A stretch of DNA of 64,000 nucleotides, taken from the NCBI RefSeq assembly GCF_003334405.1, contig NZ_QOWM01000001.1. The stretch is one strand, 5' to 3'. The translations under genes were made by a program, and so were the position numbers. Shown here piece after piece: positions 10,693 through 17,416 of this stretch (its first letter is position 1; the number at the start of each line of letters is the position of its first letter). Source of the stretch: Escherichia coli. GTDB taxonomy: Bacteria > Pseudomonadota > Gammaproteobacteria > Enterobacterales > Enterobacteriaceae. Under the pieces are notes generated by a model. That model was given only the letters and a program-made list of their open reading frames with translations, ran no database searches and was not told the DNA's origin.

Positions 10693-11910
10693 TTACAGCT
10701 GATGATAACCAGAAAGGAAACGCGCGAACTTGCTCAAAGACAGCTCGATATCATCGACACGCGGTAGCGTGACAATGCGGAAGTGATCCGGCCACGGCCA
10801 GTTGAATGCCGTCCCTTGCACCAACAGAACTTTTTCCTGCAACAGGAAATCCAGCACCATTTTCTGATCGTCGTGAATGTTAAAGCGTTTGGCGTCGATT
10901 TTCGGGAACATATACAGCGCACCACGAGGTTTCACGCAGGAAACGCCCGGAATATCGTTGATCAGTTCCCACGCGCGGTTACGCTGCTCATAAAGACGAC
11001 CGCCAGGGGTAATAAATTCACTGATGCTCTGATAACCACCTAGCGCGGTCTGAATGGCGTGTTGCGCAGGAACGTTAGCACACAGGCGCATTGAAGCCAG
11101 CATTTCCAGACCTTCGATGTAGCCTTTGGCGTGTTTTTTCGGCCCGTTCAACACCATCCACCCCTGACGGAAGCCTGCAACGCGGTACGTTTTCGACAGT
11201 CCGTTAAAGGTAATGGTCAGCAGGTCAGGTGCCAGCGGCGCAATTGAGTGATGCTCAGCGTCGTCGTAGAGAATTTTGTCATAAATTTCATCGGCGAAGA
11301 TAATGAGATTATGCTGACGTGCAATCTCCACAATCTCCATTAAAAGCTCTTTGGAATATACCGCGCCGGTTGGGTTATTTGGGTTGATAATAACGATCCC
11401 ACGCGTACGAGGCGTAATTTTAGCGCGAATATCATCGAGGTCCGGGAACCAGTCAGAGGATTCATCGCAAAGATAATGCACCGCTTTACCGCTGGAAAGC
11501 GAAACCGCCGCGGTCCAGAGTGGGTAATCTGGTGCAGGAACCAACATTTCGTCCCCGCTGTTCAGCAATGCCTGCATTGCCTGAACGATAAGCTCCGATA
11601 CACCATTGCCGATGTAAATATCTTCCACGGTAACATCACGCATGCCACGAGCCTGGTAGTGCTGCATGATGGCTTTACGCGCGGAGTAAAGACCTTTGGA
11701 ATCGCAATACCCTTGAGCGGTAGGCAGGTTGCGTATCACGTCAACGAGGATTTCATCTGGCGCGTCAAAACCGAACGGGGCTGGGTTGCCGATGTTCAGT
11801 TTCAGTACCTTGTTACCTTCTTCTTCCAGGCGTTTTGCTTCTTTCAGCACCGGACCACGGATGTCATAACAGACATTCTCTAATTTGCTGGATTTTTCAA
11901 TGGGGGACAT
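10693..11910 (-). CDS. alaA: Glutamate-pyruvate aminotransferase (class I PLP aminotransferase)
   Basis: 405-aa ORF; aminotransferase class I features including the SKTY PLP-lysine region (FNGLSKTYRVAGFRQGW). Confidence 0.9.
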   Translation of the reverse strand: MSPIEKSSKLENVCYDIRGPVLKEAKRLEEEGNKVLKLNIGNPAPFGFDAPDEILVDVIRNLPTAQGYCDSKGLYSARKAIMQHYQARGMRDVTVEDIYIGNGVSELIVQAMQALLNSGDEMLVPAPDYPLWTAAVSLSSGKAVHYLCDESSDWFPDLDDIRAKITPRTRGIVIINPNNPTGAVYSKELLMEIVEIARQHNLIIFADEIYDKILYDDAEHHSIAPLAPDLLTITFNGLSKTYRVAGFRQGWMVLNGPKKHAKGYIEGLEMLASMRLCANVPAQHAIQTALGGYQSISEFITPGGRLYEQRNRAWELINDIPGVSCVKPRGALYMFPKIDAKRFNIHDDQKMVLDFLLQEKVLLVQGTAFNWPWPDHFRIVTLPRVDDIELSLSKFARFLSGYHQL

Positions 11911-12826
11911 GAATCTTGACCTTTTTTGCTGTTATCGCCACTCCCTGCCGTGGAAGTCAGCTTAGAACAATGTACTCCCCCAGGACGGTGTTTTGAAGGT
12001 CTGCAGAATAAGATTTTGCCAGAGGGGAAGGCTCGATTGTGCTGTTAATAACTTAATAATGACAAAATAATGAGGTGTATATGCTTTACATGCAATGTTA
12101 TATAGTGAATTGTTCTGATTCTTAATTGTAAGTCTGGTTTTTTTATCTGTAAGATAATTGTGTGAAAATGCCTCATTTAAGAATTCACTAATGAAACGCG
12201 ATGATGATATTTCCTCATTACGGAGAGTTTAACTGCGTGATGATTTCCGAGGTGTCGCAATGGGGGCAAGGTGTGAAACTATTGTTAAGCGGAATTAATG
12301 AATGAGGATGATGCTAATTAATTATTATTTAATATTCAAAAAGGTTTTGATGTGCTTATTAATAATAGAAGATTACTTTGCCTAACATAACATAACTTTG
12401 CATCAGATAATTCGCAATGACCCTTATAAATAAAAGGTTTTTGGGGTAAAATGCTCGGATAAATGACGGATCCCTGCTCTTGATGCCGCCTCACCATTGC
12501 TGTTGGTACGTGTTCGCGTATGACCAGCGATGCTGCACGAGAGTGGAACAAGGACTCACATTTACATTTATACAAACACGCGCATGTCATAAATAGAAAA
12601 GAGTGAGTAACTTAATAGATATGCGATCCCTGAAGATATATTCTGTGATCTACTTCAGGCATTATAACGGAACAATGTGAGTCGCTTTTTTAGTGCAACT
12701 CATATGCATTTTTACTTTCGTCCGGGTTCCGGATGAAACTGCCAGGGAGGCACATTACAAATGGAATTGCTTGTTTGTGTGTGCACAGCATTAACCAGCT
12801 CAGTATGAGCCGCCAGTAAGTGATAA

Positions 12827-13768
<942 letters not shown>

Positions 13769-13811
13769 TCGACGGACGATAGATAATTCCTGAGACAATA
13801 GTGTAAAAAAC

Positions 13812-13851
13812 GAGCCGCTGGGGGTGTTTTAAACCCCAGCGGCTTTTTTTT
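13812..13851 (+). terminator. Rho-independent terminator after lrhA
   Basis: gagccgctggggt / accccagcggct stem followed by an 8-T run. Confidence 0.8.
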
Positions 13852-14398
13852 AGTAAAAATCCTTCATCGCATAGTGCAGAACGTACAAAACTGTTCATTT
13901 TTCAACCACCAGAGATTCACGTCCCGAACGCACAAATAATCGCCTGAAAAAAATCACCTGCTACAATGATGTTAAAAAATACGTAAATTTGTTGCTGCGT
14001 TTTTGTTATGGAATGACAAAAGCGTGTCACAGATCAAGAAAATACTCTCTTTTGGGGGGAGGAATCGACACAAATTCCTGTCAAAATAGACCCGTATTTT
14101 TTCCATTGCTTCACAACGGACACGATTCAACAACATCTAATTATCCTGGAGTCGTCAAGGATCTGGGGTGAAAGGGCATTAAATGCTAATGGTGTTGATA
14201 TTATGTAAACTAATGTGAAGAAACTTTTGTTAAAGTTGACAAAAGGTTATAGAAAGGAGTAAAAAACCACATCAATTAGCTGTATAAAAGAATTTCTACA
14301 GTGATTGTAAGGTTTTTTTTATTCCTCCCCATGAATCGATGTGGCGTCCATCTGCCGTGAAGAGCAGTGAATCTGGCGCTACTTTTGATGAGTAAGCA
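13852..14398 (+). promoter_or_regulatory. nuo operon promoter / regulatory region
   Basis: ~550-bp AT-rich non-coding region upstream of nuoA, following the lrhA terminator; individual sites not mapped. Confidence 0.5.
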
Positions 14399-14842
14399 AT
14401 GAGTATGTCAACATCCACTGAAGTCATCGCTCATCACTGGGCATTCGCTATCTTTCTTATCGTTGCCATTGGCCTGTGTTGCCTGATGCTGGTAGGCGGT
14501 TGGTTTTTAGGCGGTCGCGCACGCGCGAGGTCGAAAAACGTGCCGTTTGAATCCGGTATCGACTCGGTCGGCTCCGCCCGCTTACGCCTGTCCGCCAAGT
14601 TTTATCTGGTGGCCATGTTCTTCGTTATCTTCGACGTTGAAGCGCTGTATCTGTTCGCATGGTCAACCTCTATCCGCGAAAGCGGCTGGGTAGGCTTTGT
14701 GGAAGCTGCAATTTTTATTTTTGTGTTACTGGCAGGTCTGGTTTATCTGGTGCGTATTGGCGCGCTGGACTGGACGCCCGCGCGTTCACGCCGCGAGCGT
14801 ATGAACCCGGAAACGAACAGTATCGCTAATCGTCAACGCTAA
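14399..14842 (+). CDS. nuoA: NADH:quinone oxidoreductase subunit A
   Basis: 147-aa membrane protein; first gene of a 13-gene colinear nuo cluster. Confidence 0.95.
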
Positions 14843-14857
14843 CCGCGAGGCATTAAG

Positions 14858-15520
14858 ATGGATTATACGCTCACCCGCATAGATCCCAACGGTGAGAACG
14901 ACCGTTACCCCCTGCAAAAGCAGGAGATCGTAACCGACCCTCTGGAGCAAGAAGTTAACAAAAACGTGTTTATGGGCAAGCTCAATGACATGGTTAACTG
15001 GGGTCGTAAAAACTCAATTTGGCCGTATAACTTCGGTCTTTCCTGCTGTTACGTTGAGATGGTGACTTCGTTTACCGCGGTGCATGACGTGGCGCGTTTT
15101 GGCGCAGAAGTATTGCGTGCTTCGCCGCGTCAGGCTGACCTGATGGTGGTTGCAGGAACCTGCTTTACCAAAATGGCACCGGTTATTCAGCGTCTGTATG
15201 ACCAGATGCTGGAACCAAAATGGGTTATCTCAATGGGTGCCTGTGCCAACTCTGGTGGTATGTACGATATTTATTCCGTTGTGCAGGGCGTCGATAAATT
15301 CATCCCGGTTGATGTGTATATCCCGGGCTGCCCGCCGCGTCCTGAAGCGTACATGCAGGCACTGATGCTGTTGCAGGAATCTATCGGCAAAGAACGTCGT
15401 CCGCTCTCCTGGGTGGTTGGCGATCAGGGCGTTTATCGCGCCAATATGCAATCAGAGCGCGAACGCAAGCGCGGTGAACGCATTGCCGTAACTAACCTGC
15501 GTACACCTGACGAGATTTAA
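14858..15520 (+). CDS. nuoB: NADH:quinone oxidoreductase subunit B (N2 Fe-S cluster)
   Basis: 220 aa; CCY...GxCxxxG...C...P.GCPP cysteine motifs. Confidence 0.95.
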
Positions 15521-15613
15521 TTTGCGCCTGTCGGCAAAGGGATTTTTCTTCGCTTATTCCTAAATCTATTTCGCGAAGCTTACTGCGCCGACAGTCACCA
15601 CGGACCATTTGCA

Positions 15614-17416
15614 ATGGTGAACAATATGACCGACTTAACCGCGCAAGAACCCGCCTGGCAGACCCGCGATCATCTTGATGATCCGGTGATTGGCGAACTG
15701 CGCAACCGTTTTGGGCCGGATGCCTTTACTGTTCAGGCGACTCGCACCGGGGTTCCCGTTGTGTGGATCAAGCGTGAACAATTACTGGAAGTTGGCGATT
15801 TCTTAAAGAAACTGCCGAAACCTTACGTCATGCTGTTTGACTTACACGGCATGGACGAACGTCTGCGCACACACCGCGAAGGGTTACCTGCCGCGGATTT
15901 TTCCGTTTTCTACCATCTGATTTCTATCGATCGTAACCGCGACATCATGCTGAAGGTGGCGCTGGCAGAAAACGACCTGCACGTACCGACCTTCACCAAA
16001 CTGTTCCCGAACGCTAACTGGTATGAGCGTGAAACCTGGGATCTGTTTGGCATTACTTTCGACGGTCACCCGAACCTGCGACGCATCATGATGCCGCAAA
16101 CCTGGAAAGGTCACCCGCTGCGTAAAGATTATCCGGCGCGCGCTACCGAATTCTCGCCGTTTGAGCTGACCAAAGCCAAACAGGATCTGGAGATGGAAGC
16201 CCTGACCTTCAAACCGGAAGAGTGGGGGATGAAGCGCGGCACCGAAAACGAGGACTTCATGTTCCTCAACCTCGGTCCGAACCACCCGTCGGCGCACGGG
16301 GCTTTCCGTATCGTTTTGCAACTCGATGGCGAAGAGATTGTCGACTGCGTACCAGACATCGGTTACCACCACCGTGGTGCGGAGAAAATGGGCGAACGCC
16401 AGTCCTGGCACAGCTACATTCCGTATACTGACCGTATCGAATACCTCGGCGGCTGCGTTAACGAAATGCCTTACGTGCTGGCGGTAGAGAAACTGGCCGG
16501 GATCACCGTGCCGGATCGCGTTAACGTCATTCGCGTTATGCTCTCCGAACTGTTCCGCATCAACAGTCACCTGCTGTATATCTCGACCTTTATTCAGGAC
16601 GTCGGCGCAATGACGCCAGTGTTCTTCGCCTTTACCGATCGTCAGAAAATTTACGATCTGGTGGAAGCAATCACTGGTTTCCGTATGCACCCGGCGTGGT
16701 TCCGTATTGGCGGCGTAGCGCACGACCTGCCGCGCGGCTGGGATCGCCTGCTGCGTGAGTTCCTCGACTGGATGCCGAAACGTCTGGCGTCTTACGAGAA
16801 AGCGGCGCTGCAAAACACCATTCTGAAAGGTCGTTCCCAGGGCGTTGCCGCCTATGGCGCGAAAGAGGCGCTGGAGTGGGGCACCACTGGCGCGGGCCTG
16901 CGTGCTACCGGGATCGACTTCGACGTGCGTAAGGCGCGTCCTTATTCTGGCTATGAAAACTTCGACTTTGAAATCCCGGTGGGTGGTGGCGTTTCTGACT
17001 GCTACACCCGCGTAATGCTTAAAGTGGAAGAGCTGCGCCAGAGTCTGCGCATTCTTGAGCAGTGCCTCAACAACATGCCGGAAGGCCCGTTCAAAGCGGA
17101 TCACCCGCTGACCACGCCGCCGCCGAAAGAGCGCACGCTGCAACATATCGAAACCCTGATCACCCACTTCCTGCAAGTGTCGTGGGGTCCGGTGATGCCT
17201 GCCAATGAATCTTTCCAGATGATTGAGGCGACCAAAGGGATCAACAGTTACTACCTGACCAGCGACGGCAGCACCATGAGTTACCGCACCCGTGTTCGTA
17301 CCCCGAGCTTTGCGCATTTGCAGCAAATTCCGGCGGCGATCCGCGGCAGCCTGGTGTCTGACCTGATTGTTTATCTGGGCAGTATCGATTTTGTTATGTC
17401 AGATGTGGACCGCTAA
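15614..17416 (+). CDS. nuoC: NADH:quinone oxidoreductase fused subunit C/D
   Basis: 600-aa ORF (alternative ATG at 15626 would give 596 aa); NuoC-like N-terminus and NuoD (49-kDa)-like C-terminus in one frame. Confidence 0.93.

Follow-up and report, generated by a model that had tools for sequence, protein, structure and literature searches.

The lrhA-nuoA spacer

The DNA analysed here, hereafter the window, is a stretch of 64,000 nucleotides of Escherichia coli (assembly GCF_003334405.1, contig NZ_QOWM01000001.1), and its element of interest is the spacer between the genes lrhA and nuoA. Both genes lie on the plus strand as read. lrhA occupies positions 12830-13768, stop codon included, and the ATG of nuoA starts at 14399, so that the spacer covers 13769-14398, exactly 630 bp. 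The features described below (Table 1) indicate that this spacer is very probably the known multi-input control region of the nuoA-N operon of E. coli K-12, which encodes NADH dehydrogenase I (complex I).

Compared with E. coli K-12 MG1655, window positions 10971-15971 contain no mismatch over 5001 nt. A window position w was converted into published coordinates as 2419471 - w for NC_000913.3 and 2417493 - w for NC_000913.2, the latter conversion being calibrated against published site sequences. The RefSeq annotation of identical E. coli DNA gives lrhA and nuoA as flanking genes and no feature between them. The spacer is carried by 5424 of 5426 complete E. coli genomes and is single-copy; a repeat element was excluded as its identity since there is one copy per genome. 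Only one of the window's 59 intergenic gaps is larger (919, 630, 337, 289 bp and so on, with a median of 56 bp), and of those separating genes of the same strand it is the largest. From the end of the T-run of the lrhA terminator to nuoA, 547 bp have a G+C fraction of 0.377, against 0.497 for lrhA, 0.534 for nuoA and 0.512 for the whole window. An earlier note on this DNA, drawn up from the letters of the sequence, had described a 630-bp intergenic region with about 550 bp of AT-rich DNA past the lrhA terminator, and both measurements agree with it.

Table 1. Features of the lrhA-nuoA spacer, in window coordinates (in brackets, positions relative to the transcription start site at 14271)
Feature	Position	Strand	Description
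lrhA intrinsic terminator	13806-13851	+	12-bp G+C-rich stem, 10-nt loop, T8 tail
AT-rich spacer without sequence conservation	13852-13968		length 116-120 bp in most genera
Distal ArcA-P region 'nuoA2'	13970-14012 (-301 to -259)	+	three TGTTA-type direct repeats
Block B	14012-14047 (-259 to -224)		36 bp near-invariant; mean conservation 0.91, 23 columns at least 0.99
Blocks C1 GGGGGAGGAAT and C2 TCCTGTCAAAATA	14055-14065 and 14076-14088 (-216 to -183)		conservation 0.97 and 0.98
Block D ACGGACACGATTCAACAAC	14116-14134 (-155 to -137)		conservation 0.95, 13 columns at least 0.99
Block E GGGCATTAAATGCTAATG	14174-14191		Fis-type core, 1 mismatch; conservation 0.8-0.87
Proximal ArcA-P region 'nuoA1'	14192-14222 (-79 to -49)	+	three direct repeats, 11-bp spacing
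Core sigma-70 promoter and main starts	14236-14274	+	-35 TTGACA 14236-14241, 18-bp spacer, -10 TAAAAA 14260-14265, starts 14271/14274
5'-terminal hairpin of nuo mRNA	14273-14307	+	begins at +3; in minimum-energy and centroid folds
U-run, then invariant pyrimidine-rich tract UUAUUCCUCCCCAUGAAUCGAUG	14311-14340	+	conservation ~0.91
Leader stem-loop	14341-14382	+	outer helix 14341-14348/14375-14382, inner helix 14352-14356/14362-14367; U-rich stretch after; RNAalifold consensus
RyhB pairing site	14392-14409	+	covers the nuoA ribosome-binding region and start codon

Conservation across Enterobacteriaceae

A search with NuoA yielded 80 Enterobacteriaceae species, and 82 spacers were aligned with MAFFT. 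lrhA is located directly upstream of nuoA in all 80 species, with a spacer of 623-634 bp in most of them (range 606-937 bp). Identity to E. coli was calculated over the 78 non-Escherichia species. In the proximal part of the spacer (13967-14398, 432 bp) its median value is 0.72, which exceeds the 0.61 obtained for the four-fold degenerate sites of nuoA and nuoB, and 218 of the 432 columns are conserved at 90% or more. In the distal part (13851-13966) the median falls to 0.30, the random level, with an ungapped identity of about 0.33. The alignment thus points to the proximal 432 bp as the control region proper.

Within this proximal part conservation is organised in blocks. Relative to the transcription start site (TSS) at 14271, the upstream blocks span -302/-293, -259/-224, -216/-206, -195/-183, -155/-137, -88/-80, -67/-54 and -50/+12, and the leader blocks +46/+72, +76/+86 and +90/+99. 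The inter-block distances hardly vary among the 82 sequences: 21 bp (82/82), 36 bp (82/82), 22 bp (81/82), 39 bp (61/82, the others being within 2 bp), 66 bp (68/82), 21 bp (81/82) and 33 bp (70/82). This spacing is near-invariant even where the intervening sequence cannot be aligned, and on this evidence the pattern appears to be that of a densely occupied, geometry-sensitive regulatory region.

Variation within E. coli was also considered. A divergent allele, found in 1043 of 5424 genomes, has a spacer 90-95% identical to the one studied here. Only 5 of its 38 differences fall in conserved columns, which make up 37% of the spacer, when 14 were expected. The differences cluster in the variable stretches, the terminator, the distal spacer and, within the proximal ArcA site, its first repeat.

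We examined whether a single promoter followed upstream by dispensable AT-rich filler, for instance H-NS-bound or curved DNA, could account for the same spacer. Such a reading can draw on the recognition of the core promoter by RNA polymerase alone in vitro (PMC3946193), on the 117 bp of the distal part that are truly unconserved and on the consensus scans, which are unconvincing for most regulators. It does not account for near-invariant blocks at fixed spacing that reach -302 in 80 species and exceed synonymous sites in conservation, nor for the in vivo occupancy of -301 to -259 by ArcA (PMC3798270), nor for the upstream Fis sites reported in published work. The block-wise conservation with fixed spacing largely rules out a lone promoter with a dispensable remainder. 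This was the case that the earlier note had named as the one that would overturn its interpretation; conservation up to -302 and ArcA at about -300 contradict it, and we give the filler reading hardly any credence.

A hidden gene, whose product would be a small protein or a separate small RNA, would be another source of conservation. E. coli indeed contains open reading frames (ORFs) of 60 amino acids (13989-14171, plus strand) and 54 amino acids (13972-14136, minus strand) together with a 9-codon leader ORF starting at 14331, and conservation runs on for 36 and 62 bp in places. However, the two longer frames are broken in nearly all other genera, most of which keep 4-8 codons. The frame from 14331, whose AUG lies inside the CU-rich tract, ranges in length between 9 and 41 codons, begins with GUG or lacks a start codon in 22 of the 82 sequences and is preceded by no Shine-Dalgarno sequence; across the 82 sequences it does not qualify as a leader peptide or upstream ORF. 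Moreover, the conserved blocks show no variation at any of the three codon positions, and the stretches between them cannot be aligned. No Rfam match was obtained in the spacer, a simple scan found neither a promoter-like site on the minus strand nor a terminator inside the conserved part, and no TSS besides 14271/14274 is recorded within the spacer. A hidden gene is consequently very improbable, and we retain a control region as the origin of the conservation.

Promoter and transcript starts

The core promoter displays a -35 hexamer identical to the sigma-70 consensus (6/6) and a -10 hexamer matching it at 4 of 6 positions, the final T being absent. With its 18-bp spacer and a mapped start downstream of the -10, it has the organisation of a sigma-70 promoter, and it lies within the 62-bp block from -50 to +12, whose mean conservation is 0.93. 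In genomic SELEX (systematic evolution of ligands by exponential enrichment), the RpoD holoenzyme alone binds the nuoA-lrhA spacer, and TTGACA-18-TAAAAA is given for nuoA (Shimada et al., PMC3946193). The TSS sequencing of Kim et al. (PMC3415461) recorded 4218 reads at NC_000913.2 position 2403222, corresponding to window 14271, and 1744 reads at 2403219, corresponding to 14274. The 50-mers printed upstream of both starts match the window, and these are the only starts assigned to nuoA in that table. A minor start of 40 reads at 2403076 (window ~14417), just inside the nuoA coding sequence, is assigned there to nuoB. We also note that a NusG-suppressed pause 'in nuoA' has been shown (PMC10268239). 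In the divergent E. coli allele the -10 hexamer ends in a different base (14265 A>G), a change also present in E. albertii.

Other 5' ends have been used in the literature. Table S6 of the ArcA study (PMC3798270) gives the ArcA sites as offsets from two EcoCyc start sites, mapped 173-174 nt apart, and from these offsets we calculated starts at ~14136 and ~14309-14311. The nuo operon might thus possess two or three real promoters, with additional starts at ~14310 (88-nt leader) and ~14136 (~262-nt leader), the upstream conservation belonging partly to them or to the longer leader. In agreement with this possibility, +1 is 14311 in the leader numbering of the RyhB study (PMC6497325), as deduced from the placement of the RyhB duplex; block D ends at 14134, just ahead of ~14136; and nuoA-N of Pseudomonas putida has two promoters (PMC6072106). 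Against it, the TSS sequencing table has no start at ~14136 or ~14310, neither a simple scan nor inspection revealed a credible -35/-10 pair at these positions, and the sequence 14136-14170 is not conserved. The candidate -10 for ~14310, TACAGT, sits in the 3' arm of the covarying 5' hairpin and shows no conservation as a hexamer. The ~14309-14311 end adjoins the 3' foot of this hairpin, just before the U-run, where a reverse transcription stop or an RNase E cut would produce the same primer-extension band. On balance, real additional promoters seem rather unlikely to us, though less so than the two readings discussed above.

Starts at 14271/14274 fit the conservation pattern and the RNA covariation, rather than the older ~14310. 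In particular, since the leader hairpin described below covaries, 14273-14307 must be transcribed in all these genera, an argument for 14271 as the ancestral start.

ArcA operators and other regulator sites

The two regions bound by phosphorylated ArcA (ArcA-P) were located through the site sequences published from chromatin immunoprecipitation followed by sequencing (ChIP-seq; PMC3798270), both of which match the window exactly. The distal sequence, TGTTAAAAAATACGTAAATTTGTTGCTGCGTTTTTGTTATGGA, contains three repeats with a 22-bp step. Its repeats ATGTTAAAAA and TTGTTGC hardly vary, with their starts 21 bp apart in 82 of the 82 sequences, and account for the block at -302/-293 and the TTGTTGC 21 bp downstream of it. 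The proximal sequence is GTGTTGATATTATGTAAACTAATGTGAAGAA, and the block at -67/-54 belongs to it. Both sites thus have the characters of ArcA-P operators, the direct repeats being seen in the sequence while the occupancy and the expression change, a 2.7-fold derepression of nuo in an arcA mutant, come from the literature (PMC3798270). A CpxR-type box, GTAAACTAATGTGAA (14205-14219), overlaps the proximal site; it matches GTAAA-N5-GTAAA at 9 of 10 positions with a conservation of 0.87. CpxR is stated, with no coordinates, to repress nuo by binding directly to the nuo promoter (PMC8831704).

The remaining regulators were searched for with consensus patterns rather than weight matrices. The Fis-like match in block E spans 14174-14188; in other genera this block reads ATGTTAATG, an ArcA-type repeat. 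NarL heptamers were found at 14255-14261 and 14388-14394 (minus strand), and a NarL-like heptamer at 14043-14049. The latter coincides with the 3' end of block B, which reads TACTCCT or TACCCCT in most genera and TACTCTC in E. coli. The scans of the spacer for FNR, CRP, IHF, Fur, PdhR and Cra gave weak matches or none, and no convincing sigma-54, sigma-E or sigma-32 site was found in it by eye. In the literature, NarL and FNR regulation of nuo is cited, as is Fis binding at multiple nuo upstream sites, and control by IHF has been published too.

Upstream blocks and the inverted repeat

Consensus scans of block B retrieved weak FNR-like or ArcA-like matches only. C1 and C2 lie 22 bp apart in 81 of 82 sequences, around a variable core. 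Blocks B, C1/C2 and D may well be published Fis, IHF or NarL footprints. We observed in addition that positions 14012-14029 read AATGACAAAAGCGTGTCA in E. coli and E. albertii-like sequences and ATTAACAAAAGCGTGTC in other genera, the Escherichia version creating a perfect TGACA-N6-TGTCA palindrome. A GGAAT...ATTCC hairpin within C1/C2 was discarded, as it is not kept in other genera.

Block C1 is also the reverse complement of a leader motif: GGGGAGGAAT (14056-14065) and ATTCCTCCCC (14321-14330) form a perfect 10-nt inverted repeat whose two arms are near-invariant in the 80 species and are each followed by GAATCGA. The C1 arm lies 211 bp upstream of the TSS. About 0.2 such 10-nt inverted repeats are expected by chance in 630 bp, and it is possible that one DNA-binding factor is common to both arms. 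Long-range RNA pairing or looping through this repeat was rejected because the changes G14061T (Buttiauxella-like genera) and A14063C (Salmonella, Citrobacter) are never compensated and because the upstream arm is located upstream of every reported start.

Leader RNA and RyhB pairing

Transcripts from 14271 and 14274 carry leaders of 128 and 125 nt, respectively. The 5'-terminal hairpin is weak in E. coli (~-7.8 kcal/mol) but is predicted in most species from stems that differ in sequence. In an alignment built from sequence only, 73% of its cells are paired, against 22-43% with slid partners, and changes on both sides affect 8 of its 11 pairs; the mean z over 67 distinct sequences is -1.16. 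Stem-loops at the 5' end that stabilise long-lived mRNAs are known from the type of the ompA 5' untranslated region. The nuo hairpin resembles them structurally, as it starts no more than 2-3 nt from the 5' end and compensating changes have preserved it across species; by analogy, it may have a similar stabilising effect.

The CU-rich tract that follows folds worse than shuffled sequences (mean z = +0.52) and is therefore probably single-stranded. In the downstream leader stem-loop, 98.8% of cells are paired and the mean z is -1.93. Changes on both sides were counted in 50 cells, compared with 8.7 +/- 5.5 for shuffles and at most 18 for slid controls; these covariation counts are inflated by related sequences, the AU/UA variant of two pairs being a single event of the Enterobacter clade. 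An Rfam search of 14271-14398 returned no family at E <= 1, and the matches over the spacer were limited to chance-level ones over the terminator.

The end of the leader is the target of the small RNA RyhB. Using RNAduplex with the core nucleotides 37-68 of the MG1655 RyhB (central pairing nucleotides 38-57), we obtained a duplex of -23.6 kcal/mol at the position given in Table 1. Chareyre et al. (PMC6497325) reported that RyhB represses nuoA by pairing over the ribosome-binding site and start codon, and that G86C/C87G abolishes this repression, which compensating mutations in RyhB restore. The predicted duplex and the published genetics together identify an Hfq-dependent small RNA target site.

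The lrhA terminator, the distal spacer and neighbouring features

The lrhA terminator begins 37 nt past the lrhA stop codon. Its folding energy is -28.9 kcal/mol (z = -5.4 compared with shuffles), and it has the features of an intrinsic, Rho-independent terminator. The hairpin was also recovered as an inverted repeat (I1), and stem and T-run are kept across genera in the spacer alignment. A simple terminator scan of the spacer left it unreported because its loop is 10 nt long. On the 5' side of the terminator a conserved A-run makes the minus strand also read as a hairpin followed by UUUUUU, and the terminator could halt antisense transcription leaving the nuo control region.

Downstream of the terminator, the distal spacer (13852-13968) keeps a near-constant length of 116-120 bp in most species despite its random-level identity. 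In one species the lrhA stop codon is 518 nt away from conserved block A, which places a large insertion upstream of this block. Judging from this one mapped case, with three other long spacers unmapped, the large insertions of other genera seem to fall on the lrhA side of block A. Weak SELEX peaks of the RpoH and RpoF holoenzymes are reported near window 13923. A 17-nt direct repeat, 82% identical, links AATTCCTGAGACAATAG (13785-13801) to AATTCCTGTCAAAATAG (14073-14089). The copy at 14073-14089 corresponds to conserved block C2; that at 13785-13801, located in the unconserved 3' tail of lrhA, is probably due to chance.

Further away, the largest gap of the window is the divergent alaA-lrhA spacer (11911-12829, 919 bp), in which SELEX peaks of the RpoD, RpoH and RpoE holoenzymes have been reported. 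An lrhA start at window 12459 (11 reads; supplement of Kim 2012, PMC3415461) gives lrhA a 371-nt leader. The only Rfam match of the 64-kb window at gathering score is the nuoG RNA motif RF01748 (19256-19298, 50.3 bits, E = 1.2e-7), a curated cis-regulatory candidate inside the nuo operon.

Assessment of the control region

The interpretation of the spacer as a large nuo control region, put forward in the earlier note, is right and is already established in the literature. Its expectation of multiple promoters or regulator sites agrees with the two ArcA ChIP-seq regions and with the more than one transcript start reported. Its extent can be refined on two points: the proximal part stands as control region, while the 117 bp past the terminator are unconserved and the last 128 nt are a transcribed leader. 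As this leader acts post-transcriptionally, through RyhB pairing and RNA structure, promoter DNA makes up only part of the ~550 bp. Of the regulators for which motif scans had been proposed there, ArcA was recovered as repeats at both ChIP-seq sites, Fis gave a candidate with one mismatch and NarL candidate heptamers, FNR matched only with three mismatches, and IHF had no match within one mismatch.

Several observations weigh against this interpretation or its details. FNR consensus matches in the spacer have three mismatches and are weak, IHF has no match in it within one mismatch, and the bulk of blocks B, C1/C2 and D matched no factor in the consensus scans run. In the FNR ChIP paper nuo appears in the reference list only. 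The positions proposed here for Fis, IHF, NarL and FNR are consensus matches and hence weak candidates. The promoter itself fails a simple consensus scan, which leaves it unreported because the scan requires the final T of the -10. Sources disagree on the starts, ~14136 and ~14310 being EcoCyc-based and 14271/14274 coming from TSS sequencing. Lastly, the leader structures and the fixed spacing are known from sequence comparison, and the functions of the leader structures are putative, as are the roles of blocks B, C and D and the phasing model presented below.

Comparison with known systems

Bongaerts et al. 1995 and Wackwitz et al. 1999 reportedly describe the E. coli nuoA-N promoter region. 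The spacer is the same DNA as the nuoA-N promoter region of Park et al. 2013 (PMC3798270), base-identical to MG1655, and differs from it in nothing of kind: the published ArcA sites, TSS flanks and promoter hexamers all map exactly onto the window. Like cyoABCDE, pdhR-aceEF-lpdA and sdhCDAB, the operon has several ArcA-P direct-repeat operators close together, of which one lies near the promoter and another 150-300 bp upstream, and it is repressed anaerobically. Unlike cyo (65-fold) and sdh (134-fold), nuo is derepressed just 2.7-fold in an arcA mutant (PMC3798270), and in contrast with these ArcA operons its proximal site lies upstream of the -35 instead of over the promoter. In the nuoA-N operon of P. 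putida (PMC6072106) the upstream region is long as well; it carries two promoters, and four Fis sites were footprinted there 145-290 bp ahead of nuoA. The likeness is that a nucleoid protein controls complex I according to growth phase; the organism is unrelated, however, and Fis represses there.

What the present analysis adds is descriptive, namely the cross-genus conservation map, the fixed block spacing, three blocks to which no factor is assigned here and a covarying leader structure.

Proposed mechanism and significance

From these elements the following model can be proposed. The 37-nt 3' tail of lrhA and its strong intrinsic terminator would insulate nuo from lrhA transcription and are followed by ~117 bp of AT-rich spacer whose sequence is unconstrained. 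The next ~270 bp (-302 to -36) would present near-invariant protein-binding blocks at fixed distances, with two ArcA-P operators, the CpxR-type box over the proximal one and the Fis-like site; according to the literature, further Fis, IHF, NarL and FNR sites should be present as well. A single strong sigma-70 promoter, TTGACA-18-TAAAAA, fires at 14271/14274 and produces the 128-nt leader. Under anaerobiosis, ArcA-P bound at -79 to -49, beside the -35, and at ~-300 would reduce RNA polymerase recruitment, and under envelope stress CpxR would repress through the overlapping box. Fis, IHF and NarL would act from phased upstream blocks, probably through DNA bending; we propose that the spacing is conserved because the regulators probably bend the DNA. 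In the transcript, the hairpin at +3 may protect the 5' end of the mRNA, the unpaired CU/U-rich tract and the stem-loop would come before a weak Shine-Dalgarno sequence, and upon iron limitation RyhB would pair over the ribosome-binding site.

A more far-reaching version of this model can only be offered tentatively, and we consider it doubtful in its entirety. The upstream region would be a rigid, phased nucleoprotein scaffold, whose most conserved parts, blocks B, C1/C2 and D, might be bound by a regulator so far unconnected with nuo, and the leader would be an uncurated cis-regulatory RNA, possibly controlling mRNA stability or Shine-Dalgarno-independent translation. If the blocks did bind a new factor, or if the leader were regulatory, the detailed model of nuo control would be refined and not overturned.

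The value of the analysis lies in a base-level map that reconciles coordinates across papers, and in a short list of deeply conserved blocks, and of leader structures, to which no role is assigned. No respiratory enzyme of E. coli is larger than complex I or costs more iron. Because a single spacer controls its 15-kb operon, signals of oxygen, nitrate, growth phase, envelope stress and iron status are all integrated in this region.

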